DNA of 64,000 nt, taken from contig NW_025765336.1 in NCBI RefSeq assembly GCF_003918875.1, positions 186,001 to 250,000 on the forward strand. Direction: 5' to 3'. A model generated the notes under the pieces. The model saw only the letters and a program-made list of their open reading frames with translations. It did no database searches and was not told where the DNA came from. The first letter of the stretch is position 1. Every line of letters starts with the position of its first letter. The position numbers and the translations under genes were made by a program. This DNA comes from Haliotis rubra. Lineage: Eukaryota. This document shows, piece after piece, positions 1 to 35,039 of the stretch.

Positions 1-115
1 TCGGCTACGGTAAAATGTGTCCGAACCAGGTAGACCATTGAATGAAAACATGACCTCCTGCGGTCTATGTCCAGTTGACAAATCACAAAATATGACCACA
101 AGATAACCATTTTGA
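1..115 (-). pseudogene. PLE relic B, copy 1 (RT-proximal fragment)
   Basis: Translates GHRPQEVMFSFNGLPGSDT; paralogous to 12272-12440 and 24442-24580. Confidence 0.55.
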
Positions 116-157
116 TTGACTCTAACTAGAGGTGTGGTCGATGGTGTAGCATGGTGG

Positions 158-1511
158 TATCGTATCATTATAAATACGACAACACCCGGATGTAGCTTCT
201 TCCGTTTATTTCCCGGGGCAGAGCCCAACTGCCGAACTTCGTTCGGACCTCCCGGGATATCCCTCGCCGCTGACCCTCACGGGTCATCAGCCGGTCATCC
301 CGGGCCTCTCCGGCAAGTACATACGTCAATATATTATATCTATTCTACACATGTACTAAGTTCTTAATTCTACGTTGCCTATTTTGTTACACTATACAAT
401 ACTTATGTTCCAATTACAACATTTATAAGCACACTTACATGTACGTATAACCATTAATTCATATATCTATAATAGTATCTATAACATCACTACGATATTT
501 GCCCCGTGGAAAAAAAATTGTCACGTCCTCGAAGGATATCAATACTGTCTGTGGGCACACGAAAGTTTGTTTGCACACACATTCGTCCATGCGCAATTTC
601 TAATCGAGGCATCAAAACAACATATACTCAAAAAAAAAATTAATATGTTCAGACGTCCTTTAACTAGTACGAGAATATAGATGATGAGCACCGTGCGCAT
701 CACATTGCGCTTGGTACACACAAATACACACTGTTGTCCGTTTCCTTTTTTTCGCTGTTCCCAGAAATATACATGAATGTTAAGACATTTGCACACATTC
801 TGAAGTACAATCGTACAAATATCTCAATTGTTCCGGGCATACTACAGTAAACAAGGATAATAGATAGGCAACCGTTTGAACAAAAGTGAACAAATGATTT
901 TATGAGATCATTCCCTTATGGAATAACGGGATAAAGTAATGATGATTGTGGAGCTGAGGCTTGGTTGTCATTATAAACGGAACTTGATTGATAAATATAT
1001 TCTGCCGTGCGATTGTGACGCTATAGAAGGTAAGCACAGTATTGACCAGCTAAGATAAACTGTAATTTGTAATATTTAACAAGTGAATCTTATATCGGGT
1101 TGGAACAATCAAAACTTCAACATCAGGATCAGAAAAGCTAATTTGCCAATCAAACGTTATCATAGCGGAAAAGTAACTTTTTGAAAGCCGAACATTTCGT
1201 ACAGCTTCGGTGTACGTGACTTTAATTTGAGAGGGACATGCTGCTGAGTTCGATATTATGTTACAAACTCACATGGGATATCGTGGAATTATGCAATGCA
1301 AGAAGTAAATTAAGGTCGAAAGATACTAGGCATGTGCGATTAATATATTATATCTATTCTACACATGCACTAAGTTCTTAATTCTACGTTGCCTACTTTG
1401 TTACACTATACAATACTAATGTTCCATTTACAACATTTATAAGCACACTTACATGTATGTATAACCATTAATTCATATATCTATAATAGTATCTATAACA
1501 TCACTACGATA
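158..1511 (-). mobile_element. Internally deleted LTR retrotransposon remnant (complete 3' LTR 158-497, partial 5' LTR 1342-1511)
   Basis: ~170 bp direct repeat (328-497 and 1342-1511). Inverted termini TATCGTA...TACGATA. 4-bp TSD GTGG (154-157, 1512-1515), confirmed by the empty site in copy 2 (near 12475). On the minus strand a purine tract GGGGCAAA precedes the 3' LTR and AATAAA lies near the LTR end. Confidence 0.75.
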
Positions 1512-1671
1512 GTGGTAAGAAACGTTCGCTAGTCACGCCAAAGAATCGAGATCCTTTTCTGTAATGGGTATAATGTGTGAGTAAAAGCGACAAAAGTCTT
1601 TCGTCGTCAGTTACAAAAAAAACATCAGTTAAAAAAAAAGCATCAGTGTGCTCTCTTTCAGACATGTACGT

Positions 1672-1821
1672 GGGCAGTGGGGTAGCCTAGTGGTTAAAGC
1701 ATTCGCTCGTCACGCCGAACACCCCGGTGTGATTCACACATGCGTACAATGTGTGAAGCCCATTTCTGGTGTCCCCCGTCTTGATATTGCTGGAATATTG
1801 CGTAAAACTAAACTCACTCAC
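1672..1821 (+). mobile_element. SINE family 1 (tRNA-Asp-like head, (CACT)n tail), degenerate
   Basis: GGGTAGCCTAGTGGTTAAAGC..CTCGTCACGCCGAA head and TGGAATATTGC..GTAAAAC tail. Shared with copy 3 (24699), so it predates the duplication. Confidence 0.85.
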
Positions 1822-1834
1822 ATATTGAAGCTGT

Positions 1835-2180
1835 CCTACAAATGTCCCTCTGTAAAAAAACAGTAATTTGATTTATAAGAAAGTGATAAGTTTAAAATTT
1901 GCAAGTAACTTGTTTTACGGCAGGCTTGTATGCCAGTGTGTCCAAGTAAGACACTTCTATGTCAGTGCTCTTGTATTTGTAATGTCATTCGTGCGGAATT
2001 ATGTTTCGATATATGGAGAAACAATTTATGACAGATGGTGTGTCTTAAAAACAGACCACAGGCTACGTAGGCAGAGTCTGGAAGTGTTTTGGATAGCAGA
2101 GTCTTCAGATATTGATTGGCACTTCCTGAAAAACAACGTTCCTGAACATCATCTTCAAAGTGTTTCATTTTAAAGATTTT
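1835..2180 (-). pseudogene. PLE relic B, copy 1 (upstream linker region)
   Basis: Frameshifted translation LKMMFRNVVFQ...PVVCF*DTPSV..KLF...AYKPA..VT...FTEGHL resembles the PLE motifs LxFxNKG / PxIxYxYT..I..KxFN / YxPxGHVITG / KGPKYRE. Paralog at 24860-25190. Confidence 0.5.
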
Positions 2181-2916
2181 GATAAACTGTCAAATCCCAT
2201 CATGCGATTCTGACGTAGAAATTTGACATTTTTAGCTTTGAAGAGCCGCTATATGGAGATTCCCGCTGAAGTACATTTTGAAGTTTGTTGGCAAGCTTTT
2301 TAATTGTATTTAAATTGTATCATCTTAAAATACTTCATGCCAGAATAGTTAGTTGACATGTTTCTAGTAATATCACATTCCTAATTTGCGAGTCAGCTTG
2401 GTGACCTTAAAATTGTTAAAATTCAACAAGGAGACCCTTATCTTATGAGTGGGTAATAATTGTCTACTTTTGAGAGCTCCGACTTTCTTCAAGGCGTCCT
2501 ACCTGTACAGAGCTGTTACAATCACCATACATGAAAATACACATGGGCGTTTTTGGCTTGTGCCAAATGTCGCAATCGTTAAATGTCAAGACATAACACC
2601 TGACTCTTAGTTAAATGTATGCGACATCTATGCAGGTTTACTAATTATATACGACATAGAATCTAATTCCAAATCGCTTGATGGAGATCCTCCCTTTCAT
2701 TCCACGCCATATGTTCAGAGCTTTTGAATAGACACAGACTAGTTACGATGTGAGTGTGTACCGATATAGGGACACCTTTCTGTGGTATCATGTTATGTGA
2801 GTGAGAGAATGGGGAATAGTGGTATAGCAGCAGCTAGGCCGTTCTCCAAAACTTTGAGCCAGAGCCAGAGGAACCAGTTGTCCCAAAGCAGGAGCAACTG
2901 ACTTCGACAGAGGGTA

Positions 2917-2980
2917 TATCATCCATCCAGCCAGCCAGCCATCCATCCATCCATTCATACATTCATTCATTCATTCATTC
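2917..2980. repeat. (ATCC)n/(ATTC)n microsatellite
   Basis: Seen directly; paralog at 13377-13416. Confidence 0.9.
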
Positions 2981-4200
2981 ATATATTTACCCATTTATTC
3001 ATTCCCGAGTTTCACAAAGAAATGTGTTGCAAAAATCACTAACCAAATTCACTTCAAATGACAGACAAGGACGAGGCTTAGATTTGATCACAGCTTTCAC
3101 CTATCCACTCACTATCCCTAAAGAGACCTTGCTGACGTCCTTATTGCCCATTGTCCTTATTCATTGATATGACACTTCAAACTATTAACACTTGTTCTCG
3201 GCGCTAAATGATAACTCCTCTCACTCATCACATATCCACATGGGCAAACCCAGTACTCTTATATATTGATCATAAATGACATGCAGTCGGTGGACCATTC
3301 AAATATTGAAGAAGAACATTTGCTACTACCACCGAGATCTGCACAGAGACAGCCCCACCAAGGCTCGCCAAGTTAACTTGCACGTATTTGGCGACCACAC
3401 TGACTTCTATTTCCCCAACTGCGACAGTCAAGAAATAAAATCACCTCGCAGATGATGAAAATCGAACCATGCAATTCCGGTTGTGCGAGCGACCGACTGT
3501 TTGTCTGAGATAGCGGCCCTGTTTGACTGTTTCTGTATTGTTACGCCTGTTCTCATGCGTGATGACATGTATACGTGTTTAATAAACGTTTAAATAAAAA
3601 GTTGAACGTCGGCAAGAAAACTTTATAATTGCGTATGCAAAGGAATATTTGAACGTTCTATATTTGGTTTTATATGATTCTAACATGACACTGCTTAAGC
3701 GAACTTTCAAGTCAAATATTGTGAGTTTATTGATTCTACACTTGTGACGATCTCTTATTTCAAAACATATTAGGTTTATCTCCCAATATCCACAGAACTG
3801 GATCGCCACAGGCTTCAATTTGATCTGTTAAACGAAAAAAGTTCTTATTTATTGACACTTAAATCCACATTGAACAGGGCAATAAATAAAATATCACATT
3901 GGTTCTCGTTTGATACCATTATTGGGAAGGTTATGGTACCTTATCAATTGAAACGAGAAAGATGGTTTGCGCGCTTCACAATAATTCTATCGAACAAAAG
4001 TGTGCATTGTTCTCCCAAACTATGAAACAGTTCAGCTACATACACCTTAAATAAACGTTTGGAAAATCTAATATGAATATTTTAAATTGTAATCCTTCGT
4101 TCTGTTTTTATGTATGGTCCAGAAAAGTACTATTGATCCTTCACAATTTCATTGCAATTTACTGCATTTCACTATCATAAACTCACACTCGAACCAGACA

Positions 4201-4371
4201 GGTTTATAACAGTTCCGATATATCATGTGCTTATTTACCCATTGTCAAATGAAGCAAGCATGTAGAGTCATGAAGCTCCCATCCTGGTAGTGTGTGAGAT
4301 CATTATAGCCACTTACAAGCAGAGCTAAGCTTGTGGAAGCAGCGGCCGTAAAACAGGCAGCAAAATGGCCA
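4201..4371. promoter_or_regulatory. Conserved non-coding island Y (copies 4201-4371, 14938-15108, 26998-27168)
   Basis: 171 nt, no indels, 3-4 substitutions between copy 1 and the other two. Function is inferred from conservation only. Confidence 0.55.
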
Positions 4372-4539
4372 CCTAAGAACCACTTTTCATACCTTTGAAG
4401 TTGAGTCTTTAACGCTAATGGAACACAGCATGCTGACAATTTTAAAATAACATGTGACGTCATTATGTAATAACAATATCATGTTTAGCATCTGGCTATT
4501 TTCCCTCCAACTTCAACACTATTAAAACGTCTAGTGGGA

Positions 4540-4699
4540 CTGACTGAGTATGGTTTTACGCCGTTTTAGCAATATTCCAGCAATATCACGGCTGGGGACA
4601 CCAGAAATGGACTTCACAAATTGTACCCATGTGGGAATCGACCCGGGCCTTCGGCGTGACGAGCCAACGCTTTAACCACTAGGCTACCCCACCGCCCCC
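4540..4699 (-). mobile_element. SINE family 1, full length
   Basis: A/B boxes, (CAGT)n tail, TSD GTCTAGTGGGA; the site is empty in copy 2 (near 15268). Confidence 0.95.
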
Positions 4700-5466
4700 G
4701 TCTAGTGGGAAGTTAACTTGATGAGAAAGTGAGGGAGTGGTGATAGATGTTTTGAAACCAAACACAGCTATAGTCTGATATAATATAAATATTTTCATAT
4801 AGAACGTAAATGACATAGCACACACAATCTCGTTCACCCGACGAAACAGATGGAACCATTAAAGCAACATGGCAGGAAAACTGTATGAATTAACACTGAA
4901 TATCAGTGATGACCACCGGGTGTTCGTGATAAGTGTCGGTCCTGCCCTACTGTTTATAGAATACATGTAGCAGTTGCATACCTCATAATATAATAGCCAT
5001 CCATACGTTGTGAATTTTAAATAAATGTCTTCAAACAGCATCCATCTTACACTCATATTCAGTTCCAATAACCGAGATTCGATGACAAGGGAAACACGAT
5101 GATGGCACCATCCTCCAACAGAAAGGGATTTTGAAAATATGTATTTGACAAAACAGAAGGAAAACGTTTTAACACTTTGCTATTGTATGGGGGGAAATAT
5201 TCCAATTCACTGAAAAAGTTTCAATTGTCTTTTGGATATGGAATGTGTTTTCTCGTATATATTTCCAAGAGCCAGTGATATCAAACTTTAATCGGGACAA
5301 ATGTAGGACAAATATCTACACACCTACTCCACACTTAGATGAATCTAACCAATGAAAGGACGTGTCCTACTGGAGGTCTAGTTTGGTTTGATAATGTTCT
5401 TGTTGTTTTTGTTGTCCCTGAGACAGGAGTGAAACAATGATAAGCACGGGTGAACAGAATCACCAG

Positions 5467-5603
5467 TGTACGGAAATAAGGTGGATTACAGACAAGAGAC
5501 AGAGCAAATTGTAAGAGATCTTAAGCCTACATTGAACCCCTACGCAGCATTAATCAAGTGTCGATTCAGACAGTACTAATTACGCCCCAGTTTGTTGGAG
5601 GGT
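5467..5603. promoter_or_regulatory. Conserved non-coding island W (copies 5467-5603, 17888-18024, 32037-32173)
   Basis: 137 nt; 1 difference copy 1 vs 3 and 3 differences copy 1 vs 2. Contains TAATTA, ATTAAT and CAAGTG homeodomain-type motifs. Confidence 0.55.
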
Positions 5604-6460
5604 GGCAATTGAGATGTTCTACAGAGATGTCTCTATATTCAGAGTATCATTATGGTCACAAATGTATCACATAGAGCAAAATCAGCAGTGAATATCAGTT
5701 GACTTTATCATTTGCTAAATATTAACTGAAATTTCTTGTGAAAGAGATATTACACTCTACATGATTCTAATTTTTTTTTTTTAATTAAATTTAGGGGATG
5801 TTTTTACATTAAGGAAAACCGTTCGCTTAAAACAAAACTGCTGATGGCATAGGCTTTTTAACTTCGAAAAGCAATTTAAACATTTACTCAAATTTAAAGT
5901 TTTTCAAACATGCTAGAGGTGATGTAGATGTAAATTACCTTAGTCTACATTGCACCAATGTATTTTTAAACAAATTACAGCCCCACAGATTTTTTTTGCA
6001 AACTGTTGCAGTTTCAGAAGATAGAATAAGACATAACAATTCTCTCAATTTTCATTTATGTAAAGAACAATTTCAGATTACATTCTTTTCACCTCGGTTT
6101 GGCTGTTTTCGTCTGTCTGACATAATTCAATCATTATCCTTCAAAGTGGATAGTTATATTTACCTACACCCACGCGTTTCTGGGTACGTCCTCGCACGCA
6201 GGTGGCCTTGTGGACAGGTCTATCACGGGGATGTGGGGTGTGGGGGTGTTTGGGGTGTAAATGGTTTATAATATAAGATGAGATGTCAGTAACACTTTAT
6301 AGTGTTAGATGAGGATTTGTTTATCAGGGGATGTTAAGAGCAGTAGGGTGTGCTAATGGTTAAAGCGTTCGTTCGTTACGCCATATTCTGTGAATCAGTA
6401 AACGTGTCATTTAGTGAACCATGATGGGTACATTTAATTAACATCGACAAAACACTTTTC

Positions 6461-6657
6461 TCATGCTTTTCGTAAGAGACGACTAACAGGATCGGGTGGT
6501 TAGGCTCGCTGACTTTTTTGACACATGTCATCGGTTCCCAATTCCGTAGATCGATGATCATGCTGTTGATCACTGGATTGTCTGGTCCAGACTCAATTAT
6601 TTACAGACCGCCGCCATATAGCTGGAATATTGCGGCGTAAAACTAAACTCACTCACT
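6461..6657 (+). mobile_element. SINE family 2 (core TGCTTGTCGTAAGAGGCGACTAA, tail shared with family 1)
   Basis: Matches the near full-length copy at 31523-31790. Confidence 0.9.
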
Positions 6658-6659
6658 CT

Positions 6660-9050
6660 TTCAAGACATTTCCTGCCAGAAACAGAGTCCATGTGATTGT
6701 TTCGATTACACCATAAACATTCAGGACAATCGAGTAGAGATGGCACCAGGTGTTCCCGAGTTTCCACATGCTCTCAAATACCCACTCCATATATACATTC
6801 CTTCTTTCATTGTATTCAAGATCATACTCTCTGAGACATGGATTCTGTGGTTCACTTGCTGGACCCTGCATTGCATCTACATCTGTATTTGAGCTTTGCA
6901 GTCCAGTACAATATAGGAATGGACATGTGTTTATGTTTCAGAGTCATGCCTGAAGTTAATAGCACTTCCTGGACATTTTTTTGATATATTGCGAGTAAAT
7001 ATTTAACCAAGAGGCTGGTAGCAGTCCGATGAGTCTTGCGCTGGGGTTAACACTATTAGCTGCCAACTCCTGACTGAACAAACTGGATGGGATTCCCCTC
7101 CAATTGGGAAATGATAGTTTGGTGGTTCTGGGACTTTTTCCATTTAGATAAAGGGTTTTGTCTTATAATGTCGCTTAAGTTTACTAAACAATTGTAATAT
7201 TGATTTGTTAAACATAAACTTCAGTGGCAAATTTGTTTGTTTTTTGCATGCTCTGTTTGAAAAACGTTTCAAAGCAAAACAAGAACTTTCTTTGTTTAGT
7301 CTCAAATTCATTCCTACTGTGTTTGGGTAAATGGTAACAGTTGCAGAATTCGTTCGATTAATTTCATCTACATTTTCAAAAGGTCACTCGTTATCAAAAT
7401 ATGAAAGTGATTCATAGACAAGTGCATCTGTCAGATTCAATTAATCGTGGAATTGTACTAGATTCTAGATAGAGGTACAAGGTTCATGAGGTCGTTTAAC
7501 AAATCTATAAAACCTCCCGTTATCCCACAAACTGAATTTACATATATCCATTTCTACAAAACTTTTATGTCAATGTTTAAACCACTATGGCGACGCCCGC
7601 TGATTTGGTGTCAAGAATTCATTACCGCAATTAAAACTGACCCAACTACAGTTAATTATGCAAATAGAGAAATTTGTATTCACCATAACATACAAATCTG
7701 AAAGTCGAGATGTGATCTTACTTTCGGAATTACCAGATTGTCATGACTTCAAGAAGTAAACATACAAAAGACATCTCATGAATTGTCTCCATTTGGACAC
7801 AACGTGCCAAAGCACATGATTAGTCAACAAATCTTTAGTCTGGTTGTCTTGTATGCATCCATCTTATCATGTGCTTTTTCTGGTGGTAAAAATATATTAC
7901 GATCATAAGATTCACCATTAAAGCTGATGCTAATATGTTCCTTGTCGTTCACTATTCCAGGCACAAGAATTCTTTGGTTCTGATCACTGACTCGTTACAT
8001 GAAGGAAGACAGACACACTTCCCAAGTTCCAGTACCAGAGCGTGGGGTTTGACACAGAATGTCTTGCGAGCGCCTTCCAGGATATTGTTTGGTTTGTTTT
8101 TTAACCCCACACTCAAGCTATAGTCAAACTATATGTCATCGATCTTTAAAAGGTCCAGACAATTCGGTGATCAACATCATGAGCATCAATCAACGCAATT
8201 TGAATACGATAACATGTATCAACAAAGTCAGCGAGTCTGACTACCCAATCCCGTTAATCGCCTCTTATGACAAGCATGGGTTGCTGAAGATCAATCCTAG
8301 CCCAGATCTTCGCAGGTAGCCCTTCCAGAGTCCAATGACAGAGGTTGATTATATGTTTCACTGTTGTGGATCAGTGACAGTATTTCATCCATGGATGTCA
8401 GTGTGCACAAATACCAACGAACTGTTACCGACATTCCGTTTGACTATTATTTGATCATTTTTAATATTATATCACTATCAAATCATATTTAAATCACAAT
8501 CAAATTGTTAAAAATCTGATTATATGAAATATACAGCAAAAGGCAAATCAGTACAATTATGAGTTTTAGAGTTAATTGGGAGATAGGTATGTCGAATACA
8601 TTAAGAACAATGTATCAAGACAAAAGCTTCAGTCCATGCCACCTAACAACGAGAGGCAAGTCTTAAAGTCACGAAATACAGTTAAAATAGTTCCTTCAGT
8701 GTCATACTGGTTTCTTAAAGCTGAGTTGGGTTCAACAGCGTACACATAATCATAACAGAACGATGATTAAAATCTACTATGCTAATTCACCAACTGCTGC
8801 AAATTCGTATCATTCCAGACCATTCCTCTCTTTCGCAACAAGGAGATTATTTGCTCAGAAGAAAACTTGCTTGAGTTTGCAGAAAGTGTATTCCGTTTTC
8901 TTCGTTTCACCGAAACTCTGAAATATGTTGAAAAACTGCGAAGTTCCACGCGACAGAAGAGGAACAATTCTTATGGATAAGCCACTTCCTAATTCCAATC
9001 AACGTTCCAAGCACGCGATGACGTCGTATCTATTGCAATAAGGAAGTTGT
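6660..9050 (-). pseudogene. PLE relic A, copy 1 (GIY-YIG-like region upstream of RT N-terminus)
   Basis: Motifs in order along the minus strand: RCLL..SKITSR..NTNFSICIINC, ALKRFSNRACKK, QELAAN..SDCYQP, KHMSIPILYWTAKL..AGSSK*TTESMS (compare PLE LPxLYWxPKLHK...IAGSSKCSTKPLS). Many stops and frameshifts. Confidence 0.7.
8085..8316 (-). mobile_element. SINE family 2, diverged, inserted in PLE relic A
   Basis: Core CCCGTTAATCGCCTCTTATGACAAGCATGGG; flanking repeat CCTTCCAG. Confidence 0.85.
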
Positions 9051-9311
9051 CTATGCATAGGAAGTGTTCCTCTTGGTTTAAGCATATTTTATTCTATTCA
9101 AGAAGAAAGAAAAGGATTGGCAAACAAGCCTAAATGGCTTATATTAATGCCGCTCCATAATACATGTGAAGGTTCACATATGTGCATAATGTTGTACATA
9201 TTTATAGTGGTTATATCAAGTTATCTCTGAATAATAACAATCATGGATATCAACAATTTATCTTGGTTTTGTTTCCTCTTCATCATATCAGCTTCAAAAT
9301 GTCACTTAAAA

Positions 9312-9517
9312 AAGAAATACGCTTGTTACCTATTACTCATAAGTCATTGTTTTCATGTATGGTTTAAGGGTGATGAACACTTCACAGACGTATAAATCGT
9401 TTTAGGTTTTAATTGCTTTTCATTTAATGCCGTATTCTGCATGCAGCTGCATCGTTTAAGACCATACTATGACATTTTAATTACTGAAAAGAGAGGAAAC
9501 TGAATTACCCAAAGGGG
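9312..9517. promoter_or_regulatory. Conserved non-coding island V (copies 9312-9517, 21761-21966)
   Basis: Visibly more similar than its flanks, including the identical run TGCATCGTTTAAGACCATACTATGACATTTTAATTACTGAAAAGAGAGGAAACTGAATTACCCAAAGGGGA. Confidence 0.4.
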
Positions 9518-9863
9518 AAAAAAGGCTAAACCAGCATTCAGGAACTCCGTCTGCATAGTAATTCACAAAAATATTAATTGACGTTTGCAGGCGATGAATA
9601 CTTTACTTCTTTGGTATAGATTGTTTCGAATAATTCTACCTGGGGTCTCAAGGTTGGGTCGATATTCCCTGCAGTTAGCATCAGTTAACAGGTTTAATCG
9701 TCTACACTAGTATACATGCCCACATGACCTAAGACCAGAATAGGTTTCTCAATAAAAGCGACAAGGTAAATGTCTGCATTTCGAGAATATAGTAGACGAC
9801 TTAGGAACCCTACTCCGTTAGATTGTCTGATCAACAACAGCCTGGTGTATTTTTATATATATA

Positions 9864-10436
9864 CATTCAAGCACCGTTGTCTCGATATTTATGGGTAAAA
9901 ATATCGAGTTATCCGAGCTTCGAGACATCCGACCAGGGCATATCATCACATATTACTATGAAAGAAAACAAAACGCTTCTCAGTATGTTTTGATTCGAAA
10001 CTGTAATCCATTATCAGTAGTGTTTAGTCGTAACAGTGAGTACGTCCTAATTAATTCCTTTTTAATTAATTATAATTAAATAACAAACAAGTGACACCTT
10101 CAACTCAATTAGCCCTAATTAGTTTACACTACCGCATCCCTTTGATACATGCCGCACCATGTGTAAACGTGGGTAAACAACCTCAGTTCAGAGTGATACT
10201 TGCCCATGAAAGGTAGGTGAATATCGAGTTTCTTTGCAAGTATCGAGTTAAAAGGGTAATTGTGCTTGTTGGGACCACGAAATTATATCGAGGTATCCAA
10301 AATATCGAGACATCCGTATCGAGTTAAAAGAGCTTGAATAATGAGAAATTATGAAGGATTTTGCCGGGACCGAGATTTTATATCGAGACAACCGGGATAT
10401 CGAGTTATCAGAGTTCGACACAACGGTGCTCCACTG
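9864..10436. mobile_element. Tc1/mariner (pogo/Tigger-like) MITE
   Basis: Termini CATTCAAGCACCGTTGTCTCGA / TCGACACAACGGTGCTCCACTG, TA on both sides, repeated subterminal TATCGAG motifs; absent from copy 2. Confidence 0.8.
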
Positions 10437-12440: not shown

Positions 12441-12584
12441 ATCGTCTCTAACTATAGGTGTGGGCGATGGTGTAGCATAGTGGTAAAAGCGTTCGCTAGT
12501 CACGCCCAAGGTGCGAGTTCGATTTCCCTAATGGTTACAATGTGTTAGTAAAAGCGACAAAACCCTTTCTACATCGATTAGAAT

Positions 12585-19470: not shown

Positions 19471-19499
19471 TGTTATAAACACAGTCCTTTGACTGTATT

Positions 19500-22351: not shown

Positions 22352-22689
22352 AACCGCCTCCGTGGTGTAGTGGTTAGAGCGTCCGCCCGGAGAGCGATCC
22401 CCGACCGCGTCATACCAAAAGACGTTTATATATGGTACTTGTTGGTCCCAGCCTGGCGCTCGGCATTAATGGGTACAACAAGGAATGGTCAGCTCGGAGT
22501 CAGTATAATGTGTCTGAGTGGGGTATTCATGCTTCACTGCGGCATGGTATCTCAGTGGGCTAGCACTTTAAAACCAGCTTAAGTCTGGGCTAGTACAAGC
22601 AGCCGCACATACACATACACACGCATGCACGTCGTCATATGAGCGAAATATTCTCGAGCACGACGTTAAACCCAATTTCACCTCACCTC
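22352..22689 (+). mobile_element. SINE family 3 (B box partly deleted)
   Basis: Near-identical to the 20558 and 63523 copies; flanking repeat TTTCGTGA. Confidence 0.9.
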
Positions 22690-24580: not shown

Positions 24581-24698
24581 GTTCGATTTCCCTAATGGGT
24601 ACAATGTGTGAATAAAAGCGACAAAAAAAAACTTTCAACATCAGTTAGAAAAAAATATGTCAATAACATCAATGTGCTCTCTTTCAGACATATATGTA

Positions 24699-24846
24699 GG
24701 CGGTGGGGTAGCCTAGTGGTTAAAGTGTTCGCTCGTCACGCCGAAGACTCGGTTCCCATATGCGTACAATGTGTGAAGCCTATTTCTGGTGTTTCTCGAT
24801 ATTGCTGGACTATGGCTAAGAGCGGCGTAAAACTAAACTCACTCAC
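24699..24846 (+). mobile_element. SINE family 1 (paralogous to 1672)
   Basis: Same flanks as the 1672 copy. Confidence 0.88.
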
Positions 24847-25831
24847 ATATTGACGTTGTCTAACAAATGTAACGTATTGTAAGAAAATGTAGTTTGATTT
24901 ACAAGAAAGTGATCAGTTTAGAATGTGCAAGCAATTTGTTTTAAGACAGGTTCTCATACCAGTTTGTCGAGACAAAACACTTCTATATGAGTGCTCTTGT
25001 TTATTTAAAGTTATTCGTGGTGAATTGTGTTTCGAAAAGATGGACAAACAATTTATTATGACAGATGATGTCTCATAATAACAAATCACAAGCAGAGTCA
25101 GGAAGTGCTTTTGGATCGCAGAGTCTTCTGATATTGATTGGCACTTCCTGAAAACAACGTACCTTAACATCATCTTCAAACTGTTTCAATTTAAATTTTC
25201 TTATAAACTGTCAAATTCCGTCGTGCGATTTTGACGGGGAAATTTGACATTTTGTAGCTGTTGTCTCCTCTTTCTTGTTTTAATGGGGTAGGGGGTGGGG
25301 TGCGTGGGTGTTGTTTGGTGTGTTGGTTGTGTTGGGTTTGTATTTGTTGGGTTTGTTTTTGTCTACGCTACGTTTTTGTTTCTTATTGTTGCTCCTGTTT
25401 TTTGCTTAATTTTTTTGCTTACTTTTTTGGGGGGTCTCTTCTCTCTTTTTTCTTTTTTTGGGGGGTGTCTTTTTTATTGCCAAATGTCGCAAATGTAATA
25501 TGTGAAGGGGGATAATACCTGACCTTTACCTGGAAAGTAATTTCGATGGCTAAATATATGCATCATCTGTGCAGGTTTTAAGAATGACGTGGTATGTAAA
25601 TCCATATCGCTTTGTCCTTGACCTAGTGTTACTGGTATTTGAGTGTAGGTGTCGAATGTCATGTGATGGAGTTCCGATCCTCCATTTCATTCCACGCCAT
25701 ATGTACAGACCTTTGGAATAGAGACAGACTAGTTACGATCTAAGTGTGGAACTATATAGGCACACCTTTCTGTGGCATCATGTTGTGTGAGTGAGAGCAT
25801 AGGGAAAGTGTTGTGGCGGTCGGCAGGGCGT

Positions 25832-25977
25832 NNNNNNNNNNNNNNNNNNNNNNNNNNNNNNNNNNNNNNNNNNNNNNNNNNNNNNNNNNNNNNNNNNNNN
25901 NNNNNNNNNNNNNNNNNNNNNNNNNNNNNNNNNNNNNNNNNNNNNNNNNNNNNNNNNNNNNNNNNNNNNNNNNNNNN
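25832..25977. other. Assembly gap, 146 N
   Basis: Seen directly. Confidence 1.
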
Positions 25978-28834
25978 AATGTGTCGCAAAAAGTCATTAA
26001 CCAAATCCACTTCAAATGACAGACAATAACGAGGCTTAGCTTTGATCACAGCTTTAACCTATCCACTCACTATCCAAAAGATTCCTTGCTGACATCCTAT
26101 TCGCCCATTGTCCTCATTCACTGATATGACACTTCAAACTATTAACACTTGTTTTCGTCGCTTCACGGCTGAAATAATAACTTCACTCACTCATCACATA
26201 TCCACAAGACAAGCACTCTTATAGATCATAAAAGACATGCAGTCGGTGGACAATTCAAATGGTAAAGACGAGACAATTTAAGAACATTTGCTACAATACC
26301 CAAGATCTTCACAGAGGCAGCACCACCAAGGCTCGCCCAATTCACTTGCACGTGGGCGTCCATACTGACTTCTTTTTCCTCAATTACGACGGACAAGATG
26401 TAAAATCTCGTCATATATGAAGGAAGTCGAACCACCAGCAAGAAATCCTTATAATTGCATATGAAAAGGAATATGTGTTTTTTCTGTGGTTGGTTTTATA
26501 TCATTCTAACATGACACTGCTTAAGCGCACTTTCAAATAAAAGATGTGAGTTCATCGATTGAACATTTGACACCATCTCTTATTTCAAAACGCATTAGGT
26601 TTATCTCCCAATATCCATGCAGAGCTAGATTGCCACAGGTTTCATTTGGATCTGTTAAACGAAAGAACTATCTTATATATTGACATTTAAATCCACATTG
26701 AACCGGGTCATATTATTGTGCGGAAGTTTATTATAAAATACAAAATAAAAAGATGGTTTGTTCGCTTCATAGAATTTCTATCGAACAAAAGTCTGCTTCG
26801 TACTCCGTTTATACGAGGCAGTACAGCTATACGCACCTTAAATCAACGTTTGGACAATCTAATGTGGATATTTCAAATTGGAGTCATTTTTTTATTTTTA
26901 TGTATGATCCAGAAAAGTCCTCTTGATCCAGAAAAGTCTTCTTGATCCGTCAGAATTTCATTGCAATTTACTGCATTTCAATATCATAAACTCACAAGGT
27001 TTATAACAGTTTCGATATATCATGTGCTTATTTACCCATTGTCAAATGAAGCAAGCATGTAGAGTCATGAAGCTCCCATCCTGGTAATGTGTGAGATCAT
27101 TATCGCCACTTACAAGCAGAGCTAAGCTTGTGGAAGCAGCGGCCGTAAAACACGCAGCAAAATGGCCAACTATCAACAACTTTTGTTTCCTTTGAATCTT
27201 TAAAGCTAATGGAACAGAGCACGCTGTCATTTTTAGAACAACCTGTGAGGTTATTAGGCAATACCAATATCATGTTCAGCATCTCGCTGTTTTCCCAATA
27301 ACTTGAACACCATTAAAACTTCTTGTGGAAAGTTAAAATCATGAGAAAGTGAGGGAGCGGGTGATAGACGTTTCGAACGCACACACGAAAATACCTAATT
27401 ATAATATAATACAAATATTTTCAAATAGAACAATGACAGAGAACACCTAGTCTCGTTTATCCGACGAAACAGATTGGATTGGACCTTGAAAGCAACATAA
27501 CAGGAAAATTATATGAATTAACACTGAAATTCAGTGATGAACACCACGTGTCGTGAAAAGAGTAAATCAGTCCTGCCCTACTGTTTATAGAGCACATCAA
27601 CTGCATACATCCTGATATAACAGACATATATACTGACGTACAAAAGAAAGTACACATCTGATGCTTTGGTAAATGTTTCCCTGAAAACAACGTAATATTT
27701 AAAAAAGTGTTTTGATTGCGACTCACAAGTCACAAACACTGTGTACGTGTTGCAATAACACCATAGATATCGTACCCAATTTGAACATTGCTAGCAAAAT
27801 ATTTACTTTGTTTTAATAGTCTCAAAAGACATCTGTACTTTTATACATCAGTATCATCCATCGATCTTACACTCATATTCAGTTCCAATAACATCATCCT
27901 CCAACAGGAAAGAATTTTGAATATATGTATGTTACAAAACAGAAGAAAAACGTGTTAACGCATTGCTATTTTATGAACAAAACAATGTTCCAATCCATAG
28001 AAACAGTCTCGGTTGTACAATGTCTTTTGAATATGAAATGTGTTTTCTCACATATATTTCCACGAGTCAATCATATCAAACTTTAATTGCGTATCAGGAC
28101 AAATCTAGGACAAATATGTGTATTTCTGCTCCACACTTAAATGAATCCGACCAATGGAAAAAGATGTCTTCAGTAGTTCTAGTTTGGTTTGATAATATTC
28201 TTTTTTGCTTTTGAAGCCTCTGAGGCAAGAACGAAGCTATAATAAGCACATGTGAACAATGTGGTTGCACCACTCTGTCACCATGTACTCAACATTAAAC
28301 ATTTCATTCTCGGATTTGGTTTGACATAACACACTTGTGTAGACATTTCAATATCTTAATTTGTCCAAGCACCAGAATCAGTGCGACGGCTGCTCACCCA
28401 GTCAACCAATGACCGTTCATGCGTCAGTACTTACGAAGCAAATCAATAGCCATTTAGTTATATGGAATGTGACTGGTAAATTGAGGACGGTCATTATTCA
28501 ATTTGGACAAATAGGGCATCCATCTAAATGAATTGGGTCATGTTCTCAGACAGATGATGACCCTTCGCTGATTAATAAGGGCTTGACATTTGCACTGAAG
28601 CCCTAAACTACTTTGATACAAGTGACGGTTATTCAAACTGTTGCCTTACGCAGGAAGAAACGATATACCTGTTTAACAGCCAGAGTAATCTTAAAGGTTC
28701 TATTTTTACAGGGAGGCAGTTGAAAACCCGTCGGCACGTTTAACACGTCAAACTATCAAAGGTATTTCTATTCCATCTCTGTCATAAGATGGTAAACAGT
28801 TTCAAGAAAGTACGAAGTCTTCATGAACTGGTGT

Positions 28835-29271
28835 ACGTAAGTCCCAAAACTTTGAAAGTCAATTTAAAATAACCAGGAATTTTAAACGTAGTATTCTTGT
28901 TATTTTAAATTTGGCTAACATTTCTTATAATCGCCAACGGCTGAAGGGATGGTGTAAATCCAACTAGGGTCCATGCAGGTAGCAAAGGTACTGTAAGTCC
29001 CCATGGTCCCTAGTATGGTGATCTGCCTTCTGTTGTTGACGATCTATAGCCTGTTTTTATATTGTTTTGTCCCAATAGTGCTATTAGTTTTAAACTTTCC
29101 ACGCTAGTTTTAATTCTAATTGTGATATTCTAGTTGTTTTACTGTCCTTCGTCGACAGGTTTTTATAATATACATATATTCCACTTCAAAATTAAATATG
29201 TTCTCGTCACGATATGGCTGCACTATTGCCGATGTGACGTTAAACAATAACTCACTCACTCACTCACTCAC
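28835..29271 (+). mobile_element. 5'-truncated LINE 3' end with (CACT)n tail (possibly I/Nimb group)
   Basis: 14-bp TSD TCATGAACTGGTGT; no Pol III head; ends CACGATATGGCTGCACTATTGCCGATGTGACGTTAAAC..(CACT)n; absent from copy 2. Clade is a guess. Confidence 0.75.
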
Positions 29272-29623
29272 TCATGAACTGGTGTTGCCCTGTCCAACTG
29301 TAGTGATTGATTTCATAGGTCACTACACACTACATCTTATCAAACAGTCAGTGACTAGGTCAGTTTAGGATGCTAAACGTGCCGTGTTAGGTTTTCTAGA
29401 AAGTATTCCGTGGGCAGACTGTCATAAAAAAGAATTTAACAAACCTACATTTGCTAGCACCAAACGTGTATCTTTGTAGAGAGAGAAACACATTGTACTT
29501 TTGCTCAACAATTACTTTTGTAAGTGTAACATGTAATATGGTGTCGTTGACAAAATATAAGAAACGTCTTGATACACTTGGCATCTTGAAACAACGCAAC
29601 TGTACAGTGGTCTGATATAAGGA

Positions 29624-29796
29624 CTGACTGACTGACTGACTGAGTATGGTTTTACGCCGCTTTTAGAAATATTCCAGCAACATCACGGCGGGGGACACCA
29701 AAAATGGGCTTCACACATTGTACTCATGTGGGGATTCGAACCCGGGTCTTCGGCGTGACGAGCCAACGCTTTAACCATTAGGCTACCCCACCACCC
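29624..29796 (-). mobile_element. SINE family 1, full length, (CAGT)n tail
   Basis: TSD CTGATATAAGGA. Confidence 0.95.
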
Positions 29797-30045
29797 CTGA
29801 TATAAGGAGCCCATGCACATGTTAAATTTGACAGTTAAGGTCTCTTGTGTCGCCATATCATTTTATGGCTGAAAATAGATTGCCACATTAAACCATTGGC
29901 TCTGCATCAACATGGAGTTTTGCTTTTGGAATGCCTTAGACCAATTAATGACATCGTAATACCCTTGAACAGTGTTTGAGTTATATCACCTCTTAAAGTA
30001 AACAAAGTATATAGTCACTGGTATCGAGATTTAGTTTTATGTTTC

Positions 30046-30211
30046 GGGTGGTGGGGTTAGCCTAGAGCTTAAAGCGTTGGCTCGTCACGCCGAAGGCCCG
30101 GGTTCGATTCCCCACATGGGTGCAATGTGTGAAGCCCATTTCTGGTGTCCCCCGACGTGATATTGCTGGAATATTGCTATAAGCGGCGTAAAACAAAACT
30201 CACTCACTCAC
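30046..30211 (+). mobile_element. SINE family 1, full length
   Basis: TSD TAGTTTTATGTTT. Confidence 0.95.
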
Positions 30212-30342
30212 TAGTTTTATGTTTGAATAAAGAATACCATATTAAACCATCTGAGATACATCTAGACACAGTTTTAACTGCCGAAGTCAAATTGTGGACG
30301 CAGTAATACTGCAATAAGGAAGGCCAATCATTCTTCTACTGC

Positions 30343-31420
30343 AAGCCATGTTACCCTACAAAGTAAGCCATGCTACACTACAGCGTAAGCCATGCTACAC
30401 TACAACGTAGGCCATGCTACAATACAACGTAGGCCATGCTACAATACAAAGTAAGCCATGCTGTGTCACTGTGTGTCTGTCTGTGTCTCTGTCTGTCTCT
30501 GTCCTTCATTCTGTCTGTCTCTGTGTCCGTGTCTGTCTCGTGTCTCTGTCTGTCTCTCTGATCATGATTCTGCTACAACGTCTGTCTGCTACTGTTCTAA
30601 CGTGAAGCCAGGTGCTGTCTCTGTCTCGGTCCTGTGTGTCTCTGTCAAATTAATGATGTCTGTCTGGTCTGTCAGGTGTTACATGGTCATTCTGTCTGTG
30701 TCTGTAGAAGTCTCGTGATAGTGGTCTGTCTGTCGTGGACCATGTGTGATAAAATGATTGTGATGGAGTCAAAGTTGTGATACAAGCATCTGACACTTCT
30801 CTGATGGATGCTGATGGGCTCGTGCTGATGGGATCGTGGAAGCTGACGTGATCCACTATGGCTTGTGGACCGTGCTACACACTGAAACGTAAATGCATGC
30901 ACTACAGACATGGAGTGATGTTGTGCCTTCCCATGCCTTCATGCTTCATCTCCACACTGTTACCTACATACTATGGGGATCATGCTATGTCACCATATTC
31001 CATGCCATACTACTACCATACTATCATATACCTAGCATGGCCATACCTATTCCATACTACCCTTCCTTCGTGTTACCTCACCATACCTTTTCCTTATGCC
31101 ATGCCATCCATATTTCACCATGCTACCATACTATTTTTCCGTACCATACTACCTTCATGCCATACTATTTTCCTTCCTTTTCTTTATCCTTCATTCCTTC
31201 ATACTATGCCTGATTGCATGCTACACTCATTACTACATGTATTTCCATGCCTTCATATACTGTCCATACTACATCTCCATGCCTGTCTTCGTGCCTGTGT
31301 CTGTCATGCTACTGTGTCCTGTTCTGGCCATGCCATGCATTCTGTGTCTCTGTGTCTTCCTCTCGGTCCTGTCTGTCTGTCTGGTCTGATGATCTGATGA
31401 TGATGTGAGGTGCTATGACG
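30343..31420. repeat. 22-bp minisatellite (AAGCCATGCTACACTACAACGT, about 5.5 copies) running into degenerate (TGTC)n and CCAT-rich low-complexity sequence
   Basis: Seen directly; fragments of the unit recur inside the low-complexity tract. Confidence 0.8.
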
Positions 31421-31522
31421 ATGATTCTCACACTATAGGAGTAGATTAATATGTCTTCTGATGTCAAATGTTACAATGGGTGCTGTTGCTGTATATATAA
31501 TTGTTCCGAAGAATCATTCAGA

Positions 31523-31790
31523 GTGAGTGAGTGAGTTTAGTTTTACGCCGCACTCAGCAATATTCCAGCTATATGACGGCGGTCTGTAAATAATCGAATC
31601 TGGGCCTGACAATCCAGTGATCAACAGCATGAACATCGATCTGCGCAATTGGGAACCGATGACATGTGTCAACCAAGTCAGCGAGCCTGACCACCCGATC
31701 CCGTTAGTCGCCTCTTACGACAAGCATAGTGGCTTTTTATGGCAAGCATGGGTTGCTGAAGACCTATTCTACCCCGGATCTTCACGTGTC
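31523..31790 (-). mobile_element. SINE family 2, near full length
   Basis: TSD GAATCATTCAGA; core TTAGTCGCCTCTTACGACAAGCA; (GAGT)n tail. Confidence 0.95.
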
Positions 31791-33034
31791 GAATCATTCA
31801 GAAACCAAGGGATGATTATGCCTACATTTCAACCATACAACAAAAAGATCCCTGTCAGATGCTCTCATACAACGGTGCTATAATACCACAGGGACTATCG
31901 TCAAGACCAACTCTTGATAATTTGGCAGTCTGAGGAGGGGACCTAAGCCATAAAACAAAAATCGAATCTGACCTGTTTCCTTGTGTCGACCTATTTATTT
32001 CCTCTCATAGAGAAGAACGTTTATCAGAATGACCAATGTACGGAAATAAGGTGGATTACAGACAAGAGACAGAGCAAATTGTAAGAGATCTTAAGCCTAC
32101 ATTGAACCCCCACGCAGCATTAATCAAGTGTCGATTCAGACAGTACTAATTACGCCCCAGTTTGTTGGAGGGTTGGAACTGTGATATTATACAGAGATAT
32201 CTCAATATTTAGAATATTAGTCTAGTCACAGATTTTTACCATGGTACTAAATCAGCAGTACATTCCATTGATTTTATCATTTGTTAAATAATAATTTAAT
32301 TTTTTGTTTTGTTAGAGATATTATTCAAAAAAGACTTGTACTGGCGCTACATGCTTTTATGTTTTTTTAATACGTTTGGGTTTTCACTTTATGGAAAAAG
32401 TTGGCATAAATCCAAACTGCTTACTTTTAATCTTTGAAAAGCAGTGACAATAATCGACTCAAATTTAAAGCTTTCCAAACATGCCAGAGGCGATGCCTAT
32501 GTACATTATCCCAGTCTTCAATGAACCAATTGATTTTTAGCAAATTACACTGCCACATATTATTTTTTGCAAACTGTTGCAGTTTCAGTTTACAGAATAA
32601 AATTAAACAAATTGGCTGTTTTCATCTGTCTGCCACAATCCATTCAATATCGTGCAAACCTAGTTACACCCACGCGTCTCTGGGCAAGTAAATTGATGAT
32701 ACCAGATCTTCGTCAACCGAGTTAACATTTCCAAAGCTAATTTCCGTCGGTCAGTAATATGTAAGTTCCCTTCTGTACATGTCATCAGTGAACCTTTTCC
32801 ACACATGTATTCAGTTACATCAGAGCTGAAATGGTTCAAGTTTATTCATAGAAAGCCATCCTTACACGAAGTCTATCAAAACGTCCGTCCATAGGGCCAA
32901 ATATACTTCACGTTGTCATTACGCACAGGTTTCCTTTGCGGGAAGGTCTATAACGAGGGTGTGGAAATGGTCGACAAGTGATGTCGGTAAAGGTTTGTTG
33001 CAGTAGATGAGGATGTGTTTTACAAAGGTCTAAA

Positions 33035-33151
33035 GGTTACTGGTTAAAGCGTTCGCTCGTCACGCCGAAGACCCGGGTTCGATTCCCCAAGTGGGTAAAA
33101 TGTGCGAATCTCATTTCAGGTGATATTGCTAGAATATTCACTCTCACTCAC
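33035..33151 (+). mobile_element. SINE family 1, internally deleted
   Basis: Head TGGTTAAAGCGTTCGCTCGTCACGCCGAAGACCCGGGTTCGATTCCCC. Confidence 0.85.
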
Positions 33152-33699
33152 TTCACATTCAGATTTGCTCTCGCATAGTCCTTGATCTGCGTACGGCTAT
33201 AAAATTACACAGAAATGTAGAATATTAAATTTAATATCGATTGGCGGTTTAATACATCGGCGGTTTGAGAAATAGACACTGCTAAATGTTGTCCAACAGT
33301 TAAAAAACAGTAAATGTCTCGCCTTTTTGTCGTGCACTGATATAAGCACTGTGCCAAGTTTTTTTTAATTTGGCATCTTTACGGAAAGTGTGAGCAAAGA
33401 AAATACACCCTGATAGAACGACATAAGTGTATATGAAATGGGTTTATGTGCTTATGCAGAACGTTATACGCTCAACATTAAAAATGACTCGCAATAAATG
33501 TCGATAAAGGATTTTCTTGTATGACGTCAAACGACGACAGAGAGGTCATGCGCGTATAAGATAAGGGGGCATAACTCCGCTATGTTTAACACTAGGTCAA
33601 TGTAACTCAGATCACTTGGAGAGAATTTGTTGTGGATACGGACGCTATATTTTCCTTATGTGTTGTTGACCGTGAATCAAACTATTCCAATACAAAGTT

Positions 33700-34860
33700 A
33701 CACAATGTGAGCGGATACGTTTTGGTAGTTTCACAATTTATAAGAAAAGATGACAATATACTACATGAGAAAGCACGTAGTAGCGACTCTGCTGGCCCTA
33801 TGCACTATCGTTTCACTGGGGAATCATCAGCGGAACATTTAAACGATATCGACAAAACCCTTTCTTTTAAGATATATCTGCTTAAAGTCCATGTATTGTT
33901 CAGATTATATCATAAGCGTGTGTATATTCAGAACTATTCGATTTTTAGAATATGCTCTTGTAAATTTTTACAGTCCTCCTTTTGAGGAGATAGTCTCTGA
34001 AATTCTGCGGTTTATTTGCCGGGCCATGCATGAAGGTGTCTTTGTATGGATTGTTATTGAACTTTGGAGGCACAAGTATTTATGTTTAGTCAAGTCAGTC
34101 GATAGATGCCTGTTTTGGACATTCTTATTGATACATTGAGAGTAAATACTTAACTAAGAGGCTGGTAGCAGTCACGTAAGTCTTGAAGTTGAGTTGCCAA
34201 ATTCATGAGTTGCCCAATTCTGAACCATGTTCCAAAGTGAACACATTGGATGAGATTCCCCTCCTATTGGTAAATGACACTTATGCTGGTTCTGGGAATT
34301 TGTTTAACATTTTGGAAAAAGACTTTAGTCCGATAATGTTGCTTAAGGTGAAAAAATAATTGCAACATTGTTTTTGTTAAGCATTCAGTAGTTAGATTTT
34401 ATCGCAGGCTCTCTTTGAAAAACGTTTCAAAGCAATGCAAGAACTATAATTTCAAGTCGATCGTTACTGTCTTTTGGTACATGGTAACTGTTGCAGAAGT
34501 CGTTTTATTTCTTTCAACCATACAAGATAATTTTGTACAGTCTGAATTGTTGCTGAAGGAGGGGCAGCATATAAACAAATGGGGGGGGGGGAATTGGGGG
34601 TGACTACATAACTATATCTATTTGGTTTACAGCATGCAATAGATACAGCAATACCATTCGTATTTATTTTAAAACATTGTTTACGTTTTCTGCAAATTAA
34701 AAGTTTCTTGAAATTATTATAAGTCATCTTATTCCATAGCATACCTACTCAACAACATTACCCCGCTAGCAAAGGACGTGCCATAACAACATGAGAAACT
34801 ATTCGAAGGGGATGTAGAATGGCCAATGGCTTTTCAAATTATGCACATAACAGTCAGGTT
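33700..34860 (-). pseudogene. PLE relic A, copy 3 (5'-truncated at the end of the triplication)
   Basis: TSFASGVMLLSRY vs copy 2 MSFAGGVMLMSRY; IALKRFSKRACDK; nucleotide colinearity with 6840-7370. Confidence 0.6.
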
Positions 34861-34869
34861 CCACAATGA

Positions 34870-35039
34870 GTGAGTGAGTGAGTGAGTTTGGTTTTACGCC
34901 GTTTTTAGCAATATTCCAGCAATATCACGGCAGGGGACACCAGAAATGGGCTTCACACATTGTACCCATTTGGGGAATCGAACCCGGGCCTTCGGCGTGA
35001 CGAGGGAACGCTTTAACCACAAGGCAACCCCACCAACCC
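34870..35039 (-). mobile_element. SINE family 1, full length
   Basis: Flanking repeat CCACAATGAG. Confidence 0.93.

Follow-up and report, generated by a model that had tools for sequence, protein, structure and literature searches.

A gene-free tandem array in the abalone Haliotis rubra carries short near-invariant islands: a possible multiplied cis-regulatory cassette

Results

The window, a stretch of 64,000 nucleotides of the Haliotis rubra genome (contig NW_025765336.1, positions 186,001 to 250,000), holds a gene-free tandem array of three colinear copies in its left half and PTDSS2 at its right end (Table 1). The PTDSS2 exons at 62.5-64 kb share 97% identity with H. asinina, and PTDSS2 is the sole host gene recognised in the window, with none between base 1 and PTDSS2 itself. 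Pfam frame scans, which miss exons under ~38 codons, covered all 143 frames of 38 aa or more in 12,308-24,477, with one real match (HTH_38); 148 of the 156 frames of 40 aa or more in 1-12,307 (eight frames of 40 aa were omitted), with none; and all 117 frames in 24,478-35,500, with one weak match below cut-off. Further right, the six full frames of 34,800-49,201 yielded one Tc3-type transposase match, and the 136 frames of 44 aa or more in 49,100-64,000, all of them scanned, matched PSS and part of a transposase, besides three matches that were weak or of low complexity. A frame at 34.1-34.6 kb had no homologue at E up to 10, and codon periodicity reached a best p of 0.03 among 97 segments. 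The sequence-only reading of this stretch had found no coding exon in the repeated unit; this holds for proteins that Pfam can recognise, but each island contains a short ATG ORF, and a 41-nt micro-exon-like relic is also present.

Table 1. Coordinates of the array, its islands, and other features (positions within the window).
Feature	Position	Strand	Remarks
Unit a (partial)	1..7375	no strand	begins left of window; carries Y and Z
Unit b	7376..20130	no strand	~12.75 kb; carries Y, W, Z; approximate junctions
Unit c	20131..34835	no strand	~14.7 kb; carries Y, W, Z; right end of array
Island Y, copy 1	4216..4355	no strand	pairwise comparison
Island Y, copy 2	14953..15092	no strand	holds ATG ORF of 21 codons at 14962 (+)
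Island Y, copy 3	27013..27152	no strand	ORF stop TAA (TAG in copies 1 and 2)
Island W, copy 2	16180..16337	no strand	holds ATG ORF of 40 codons at 16186 (+)
Island W, copy 3	28403..28560	no strand	1 difference from copy 2, synonymous within ORF
Island Z, copy 1	5467..5603	no strand	ORF ATG is GTG here; large deletion ends 11 nt leftward
Island Z, copy 2	17888..18024	no strand	ATG ORF of 37 codons at 17887 (+)
Island Z, copy 3	32037..32173	no strand	pairwise comparison
Shared block, earlier called dead retroelement	11355..12485	no strand	partners 23508-24580 and 13-159
Transposase-type helix-turn-helix fragment, copy-2-specific	19016..19348	-	Pfam HTH_38, E 5e-9
Possible 41-nt coding micro-exon or relic	19801..19841	+	partner 34539-34579, donor lost there; deleted in copy 1
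PTDSS2 (phosphatidylserine synthase 2), last coding exon, outside array	62512..62817	-	preceding exon 63954-63998

The array is old, with drift of 10-25% between copies. Specifically, chained pairwise alignments of the copies span 6381, 4122, and 4107 columns at ungapped identities of 86.9%, 84.4%, and 84.5%, the latter two totals including stray matches to repeats right of 35 kb (217 and 82 columns), which were removed before all later tests. The substitutions, indels, and copy-specific insertions reported earlier for the shared DNA are seen in large numbers in these alignments, the insertions including dispersed repeats, of which 19 segments match DNA right of 35 kb. Homology between copies 2 and 3 stops at ~20,120/34,830, and copy 2 resumes matching copy 1 from ~20,140/7,378, which sets the units at <1-7,375 (partial), 7,375-20,130, and 20,130-34,835. 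Three colinear units, as first described, are thus upheld, whereas the size of ~12.2 kb and the phase given for them are not, the junctions being shifted and the two complete units both larger (Table 1). Unit c includes an N gap of 146 bases (25832-25977), and unit a has lost W through a ~1.84-kb deletion at 5455/5456. Another copy of the block at 11.4-12.5 kb has its tail at bases 13-159, so the array runs on past the left window edge.

Copies 1 and 2 form a mosaic, with 0.096 substitutions per site in 2,780-5,456 vs 0.14-0.25 in 6,800-12,307. Long-tract exchange or unequal crossing-over between these copies evidently took place, and conversion has therefore been at work in the array. Given this mosaic, Y and Z are far less conspicuous within the copy 1/2 pair taken alone, in which 11 windows have eight or fewer events per 140.

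The shared block had been read as dead retroelement DNA that supplies a neutral baseline for the islands, and neither part of that reading was borne out. The putative retroelement frame had no homologue at E up to 10, and a PDB search with three minus-strand frames matched only an insect carrier protein (E 0.023), judged a chance match. No reverse transcriptase or endonuclease similarity was detected in the block, in searches that had low sensitivity on eroded sequence and in some cases covered minus-strand frames only. Further, copies 1 and 2 of the block are 0.14 substitutions per site apart, yet they differ at only six positions in one 162-nt window within it.

Three short islands, termed Y, W, and Z, stand out against this drift. 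Pairwise comparison confirmed the earlier observation that their copies differ by 1-4 nt with no indels: the three copy pairs show 1, 2, and 3 differences in Y (140 nt) and 3, 1, and 4 in Z (137 nt), while W (158 nt) has one difference between copies 2 and 3, or four over 171 nt. Island identity is thus 97-99%, vs a divergence of ~17% in the flanks. The copy-3 pairs have event rates of 0.177 and 0.168. In these pairs the windows over the islands show 1-3 events per 140 columns, they are the only slow windows, and none of 2000 global or 2000 within-block shuffles equalled them. No dispersed extra copies of the islands occur within the 64-kb window, and a scan against prokaryote DNA gave no match, as expected. 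The earlier suggestion that the islands are constrained in every copy fits Y and Z; W is lost outright from copy 1, and hence not all islands are needed by all copies.

One potential explanation for the near-identity, which needs no selection at all, is short-tract gene conversion among the tandem copies, with the islands as its hot spots. The exchange between copies 1 and 2 shows that such transfer is feasible here, and the island edges are sharp, most of all those of W and the right sides of Y and Z. Within Z, copy 1 resembles copy 3 more closely than copy 2, while its left flank shows the opposite, and a window of 96% identity also lies in the block that was taken as neutral (11,355-12,485 / 23,508-24,580). 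However, Y and Z would each require two recent co-located tracts, for which the chance with random tracts is 0.0004-0.001; this double coincidence weakens a proposal that the sequence-only reading had kept as its alternative. Moreover, slowing in the copy-3 pairs is confined to island windows, and a hot spot at a fixed position usually wants a cause, such as prior similarity due to selection. When changes are assigned to branches, Y shows two on the copy-3 branch vs 15.4 expected and one on the copy-1 and copy-2 branches vs 11.2 expected; Z shows four across all three branches vs 41, and W one vs 27. Against the selective reading, slow bins outside the islands do not predict each other across branches (Spearman -0.14 to -0.17, not significant). 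Further, Z was left untouched by two independent deletions, one stopping 11 nt to its left in copy 1 and the other, of ~64 nt, beginning 3 nt to its right in copy 2. Slowing on separate branches and deletions that halt at the edges of Z favour selection over random conversion, and we consider unselected conversion rather unlikely. Apparent constraint on the islands between paralogues is therefore supported by the divergence of the flanks, the branch-wise slowing, and the deletion breakpoints.

Alternatively, haplotypes or near-repeats may have been laid in tandem by the assembler, or short-read gap filling or polishing may have homogenised patches of read length. The window does contain an N gap, the islands are close to a short read in length, and abalone haplotypes can be strongly non-syntenic (PMC12627906). 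Even so, three copies with 10-25% divergence and different insertions are more than the two alleles that a diploid carries, the copies of the islands are not identical to each other, 140 identical bases out of sequence at 83% identity lie beyond polishing, and the array has a defined junction. An artefact is accordingly very unlikely.

Short ORFs raise a different prospect, namely that the islands are transcribed on the plus strand, either as exons that carry micropeptides or upstream ORFs or as non-coding RNA exons. In all three islands, an ATG ORF (21, 40, and 37 codons in Y, W, and Z) begins within 12 nt of the plus-strand 5' edge, a pattern with a joint chance of 0.0006 in random windows under a criterion set after the fact, and of 0.03 under the looser criterion of any 20-codon ORF on one strand. 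Three of the four changes inside the ORFs are silent, among them the TAG-to-TAA stop change (Fisher p 0.04). Acceptors of moderate score occur to the left of W copy 2 (top 6%) and Z copy 3 (top 2%), and the micro-exon-like 41-nt segment comes after Z. The 17 codons around that segment carry eight synonymous and four non-synonymous changes, a ratio that is not significant after multiple testing. On the other hand, the short ORFs have changed slowly at synonymous sites too (three changes seen vs 12.2 expected), so constraint acts on bases and not on peptide alone, and conservation extends 27-65 nt beyond the ORF stops. The ATG is lost in Z copy 1, yet that island has no private change inside. 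The Z frame has no homologue among 1.84 billion proteins, all three ORF peptides are absent from the protein collection and Pfam, acceptors and donors are inconsistent across copies, and the best codon signal (p 0.0009) lies above the threshold of 0.0001 for 480 open segments. We therefore regard exonic islands, under which each unit would be a small gene whose copies are kept alike by selection plus conversion, as unlikely. Two of the ORF ATGs sit within what we take to be CCAAT-box-like motifs; apart from these, the short ORFs are left unexplained by a cis-regulatory reading.

In Rfam, neither the whole window at gathering score nor positions 1-36,000 with E values of up to 5 gave anything beyond chance matches and the tRNA-like heads of SINE-type repeats, and single islands at E up to 10 gave chance matches only. 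ARAGORN gave zero hits, and the telomerase-template motif is absent in 1-35,000. Island folds were no better than shuffles (z-scores +0.3 to -1.4), and no pre-miRNA hairpin was found at the islands; W and Z are overlapped only by weak hairpins (-22 kcal/mol per 90 nt) of a kind seen throughout the region. A microRNA gene is not supported, given the lack of a stable 60-90-nt hairpin centred on the islands and of an Rfam match. No consistent conserved AG/GT splice sites were found at island edges on one strand, with rough splice-site weights that scored the real PTDSS2 acceptor at 9.5 and its donor at 2.7. Together with the folds, this leaves little support for the repeated multi-exon non-coding RNA that had been proposed.

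The islands might instead be intronic small RNAs in a non-coding host gene, with Y an H/ACA snoRNA. H/ACA RNAs match the islands in length, and Y (plus strand) has an H-box-like hexamer, one 50-nt hairpin (-14 kcal/mol), and a terminal ACA in copies 1 and 3. The scanner background, however, is 57 hits in 64 kb over both strands, and the islands differ from H/ACA snoRNAs in their weak 5' hairpin, the loss of ACA from Y copy 2, the absence of any scanner hit in W and Z, the lack of a family match even at E up to 10, and folds that equal shuffles. This identity is highly improbable.

Discussion

Of the readings proposed for the islands, a putative cis-regulatory cassette multiplied by tandem duplication, in the manner of shadow enhancers, fits best. 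We reach it by elimination and give it about even odds (a probability of roughly 0.5), so that the multiplied cis-regulatory module of the sequence-only reading is retained as the best account rather than demonstrated. The size and sharp edges of the islands fit conserved non-coding elements. Motif counts in the islands (37 vs 23.6 expected, and high among 171-nt windows for Z only) are no evidence in this matter, as the motif panel was chosen after reading the islands.

The proposed history can be set out as follows. First, an intergenic block of 13-15 kb with several constrained non-coding elements would have been amplified head to tail by unequal crossing-over to at least three copies. Afterwards, the copies swapped long tracts and lost pieces, as the array, its mosaic ages, and its deletions show, while the bulk drifted by 10-25% and gained the SINEs and transposons now seen in it. 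Throughout, Y, W, and Z may have been kept 97-99% identical by selection on exact bases in each copy, as branch-wise slowing suggests, and conversion seeded by already similar islands may add to that identity. By elimination, the islands most likely act as DNA, as enhancers or promoter-like elements densely packed with transcription-factor binding sites, and these could act additively or redundantly on a candidate target gene left of the window. PTDSS2, whose 3' end lies 28 kb rightward of the array, is a less likely target. No neighbour gene of PTDSS2 was found in print; the ancient gene-pair list of PMC3514665 may bear on the question. A bolder proposal is that each unit is either a set of three tiny ATG-to-stop modules, selected for their bases as well as their peptides, or a battery of enhancers selected for dosage, amplified with no gene and kept almost invariant in every copy during 20% flank drift. 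Such an abalone-specific micropeptide or regulatory array, which annotation pipelines would miss, is in our view distinctly unlikely.

Molluscan regulatory DNA is poorly mapped. We found no literature on conserved noncoding DNA in Haliotis and, among the matches listed for ATAC-seq and cis-regulation in this genus, none on this locus. In this setting, the islands are exact, testable candidate elements. If the cis-regulatory reading is true, the array is a natural experiment in whether redundant enhancer copies remain under full selection, through dosage, or decay. If the short ORFs are translated, it is a hidden micropeptide locus. If conversion alone explains the islands, they are a warning against taking identity between paralogues as function.

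Comparable systems share some features with the abalone array and differ in others. Gene-less head-to-tail amplification of regulatory DNA, with an effect on dosage, is established upstream of pigment and patterning genes in domestic animals and at maize b1. Those repeats are young, near-identical, and polymorphic, whereas the abalone array is old and eroded save for its islands. Duplicated elements are also said to occur in the amphioxus Irx/Sowah cluster. The elements of genomic regulatory blocks, as described in PMC3514665, resemble the islands in being short, sharp-edged, and conserved in gene-poor DNA beside a housekeeping gene; they were defined by conservation between species and by linkage to developmental genes, whereas the islands are defined by paralogue comparison only. 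The islands further differ from such blocks in lying outside PTDSS2 introns and, as far as seen, in having no co-duplicated gene. Shadow enhancers born by duplication offer a further parallel. In a study of shadow enhancers (PMC13345019), the shadow sets with signs of duplication amount to 18.3% in fly and 33.9% in mouse, and one fly locus is named in which two enhancers were tandemly duplicated together. As in the abalone array, several similar non-coding elements share one locus, and their flanks are homologous on both the 5' and the 3' side, although theirs have measured activity and a known target, and the array here comes from a mollusc and is known from sequence alone. According to the same study (PMC13345019), shadow-enhancer duplicates often diverge in their binding sites, whereas the cores of the abalone array keep 97-99% identity over a flank divergence of 10-25%.

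Setting and structure of the array

PTDSS2, encoding phosphatidylserine synthase 2, was the sole host gene recognised in the window; its last two coding exons lie on the minus strand at the right edge, so that the window represents abalone DNA downstream of this gene. The longer exon shares 97% identity with the H. asinina protein and 89-90% with those of H. rufescens and H. cracherodii, which places the source in Haliotis, closer to H. asinina than to the two North American species. In the remainder, Pfam scans, run on open frames of at least 38-44 aa and on six full frames of 34,800-49,201, returned transposase fragments alone, at 19.0, ~41.5 and 54.3 kb. Among the papers listed by our literature searches, which took in few subscription journals, none dealt with the array locus.

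Self-alignment bore out the three colinear tandem copies proposed in the sequence-only reading, with chained-block identities of 86.9% (copies 1-2), 84.4% (1-3) and 84.5% (2-3), and corrected the unit phase given there. Specifically, homology between copies 2 and 3 stops at ~20,120/34,830, copy 2 matches copy 1 again from ~20,140/7,378, and right of 34.7 kb the stretches 7.4-12.3 kb and 20.1-24.5 kb are matched solely by dispersed repeats. The units are thus <1-7,375, 7,375-20,130 and 20,130-34,835, with junctions near 7,375 and 20,130, and the array continues beyond the left edge of the window. Copies 1 and 2 differ by 0.096 substitutions per site in 2,780-5,456 and by 0.14-0.25 in 6,800-12,307, a mosaic suggesting that the first duplications were followed by unequal crossing-over or by conversion over long tracts; copy 3 lies 0.18-0.24 substitutions per site from the others.

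The dispersed 160-nt repeats carry tRNA-like heads (Rfam matches), consistent with SINEs known from Haliotis, as described in PMC4758252. A young 370-nt repeat (90-95% identical), also with a tRNA-like head, occurs as two inverted copies within the array and once in a PTDSS2 intron. Confined to copy 1, a 170-nt direct repeat (97% identity, spacing 1014 bases) could mark the ends of a small insertion. The window's single N gap falls where the other copies carry a CATC microsatellite.

Coordinates of features in the window (copies separated by slashes)
Feature	Position	Strand	Basis or note
Island Y	4216-4355/14953-15092/27013-27152
Island W	16180-16337/28403-28560
Island Z	5467-5603/17888-18024/32037-32173
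Slow stretch	9372-9518/21821-21966		71 identical bases
Supposed retroelement block	11,355-12,485/23,508-24,580
Acceptor-like sites	3824/14569/26651; 5417/15995/28219	-	strong
Acceptor-like site in slow stretch	9483/21931	-	strong
AG-GT pair	12238-12280/24408-24450	+	43 nt, frame open
Micro-exon-like segment	19,801-19,841/34,539-34,579	+	41 nt; AG and strong donor at 19,801-19,841
370-nt repeat	20551-20920; 22353-22689; 63516-63886
170-nt direct repeat	328-497; 1342-1511
N gap	25832-25977		146 bases
Minisatellite	39587-39812		period ~112 bases
Minisatellite	47920-48814		period ~147 bases
Minisatellite	50489-50788		period ~29 bases
Minisatellite	51686-51910		period ~53 bases
HTH_38	19016-19348	-	Pfam; Tc1/mariner-type transposase fragment
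HTH_Tnp_Tc3_2	about 41500-41700	+	Pfam; Tc1/mariner-type transposase fragment
Transposase_1	54245-54466	+	Pfam; Tc1/mariner-type transposase fragment
PTDSS2 last two coding exons	62,512-62,817; 63,954-63,998	-	protein similarity

Constraint or exchange

The three islands are free of indels. Base differences in the three copy pairs number 1, 2 and 3 for Y, which spans 140 nt, and 3, 1 and 4 for Z, which spans 137 nt; the 158-nt W differs by one base between the two copies that carry it. The near-invariance noted earlier therefore stands, although its extension to every copy fails for W, which copy 1 lacks. In the copy-3 pairs, where 17-18% of columns change overall, no stretch of 140 columns other than the islands has as few as 8 events, and none of 2000 shuffles was as slow, whether columns were permuted globally or within blocks. 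Pair 1-2 holds 11 such windows and by itself tells little. Homology searches failed to identify as a retroelement the block proposed for the neutral baseline, and this block contains a 162-nt stretch with 6 differences; the constraint argument is independent of it because ordinary flanks supply the baseline. No extra island copies were found elsewhere in the 64-kb window. Another slow stretch, present in two copies and holding an acceptor-like site, is a possible fourth island.

Relative to expectations computed from flank substitution rates, Y shows 2 changes versus 15.4 on the copy-3 branch and 1 versus 11.2 on the copy-1 and copy-2 branches, Z shows 4 versus 41, and W 1 versus 27. Gene conversion alone, acting at a fixed hot spot, would fit the sharp island edges, the inter-copy exchange evident elsewhere in the array, and the small tree of Z, opposite in order to that of its left flank. 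However, the islands are slow on separate branches, random short tracts would have to hit the same 140 bases twice (probability 0.0004-0.001), and two deletions, one of 1.84 kb in copy 1 stopping 11 nt left of Z and one of 64 nt in copy 2 beginning 3 nt right of it, leave Z intact. From the single genome examined, we consider conversion alone unlikely, and an assembly artefact very improbable.

RNA and coding alternatives

The islands matched no Rfam family, gave folding z-scores of +0.32 to -1.36 across six island strands, and contained no pre-miRNA-grade hairpin. An H/ACA-like pattern in two of the three Y copies would suit a snoRNA, but the same scanner made 57 matches across the 64 kb while returning nothing for W or Z, leaving this identity extremely improbable. 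Splice-like sites at island edges were inconsistent between copies and strands when scored with rough weights. Elsewhere, each of the three copies retains two minus-strand acceptor-like sites, which may be chance, and the sole AG-GT pair passing a strict scan in two copies lies within the supposed retroelement block.

Counting against a cis-regulatory reading, a plus-strand ATG ORF opens every island (Y 21 codons, W 40, Z 37), with a joint chance of 0.0006 under a criterion framed post hoc and 0.03 under a looser one; three of four changes within these ORFs are silent, one being TAG to TAA (Fisher p 0.04). That the islands are short-ORF or RNA exons nevertheless seems doubtful: silent sites evolve fourfold too slowly (3 changes versus 12.2 expected), conservation extends beyond the stops, copy 1 of Z has GTG for ATG, and the peptides found no homologue in protein and Pfam searches. 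The ATG of W and Z belongs to what we take to be a CCAAT-box-like motif, which would create the same ORF-at-edge pattern. Separately, the micro-exon-like segment may be a coding-exon relic, with 8 silent and 4 replacement codon changes between its copies, a ratio that misses the multiple-test threshold; its donor is lost in copy 3, where a G run stands instead, and copy 1 has the segment deleted.

A proposed multiplied regulatory cassette

The array has undergone tandem amplification with subsequent exchange and deletion, and holds near-invariant cores. Our preferred reading, at a probability of about 0.5, is that the islands are duplicated regulatory binding modules, candidate elements in a cis-regulatory cassette, in which selection would act on island bases in every copy and the putative modules would serve a gene left of the window. 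Homeodomain-type motifs are most abundant in Z (17 matches versus a mean of 7.7 per 171-nt window), a lead only, since the motif panel was selected after the islands were read.

Conserved non-coding regions beside bystander genes are described in PMC3514665; PMC3342872 and PMC3753653 contributed nothing specific. The array differs from known cases in combining an old, gene-less array with 97-99% identical cores. In its action it would resemble a cassette of duplicated conserved elements, with putative membership among enhancers.
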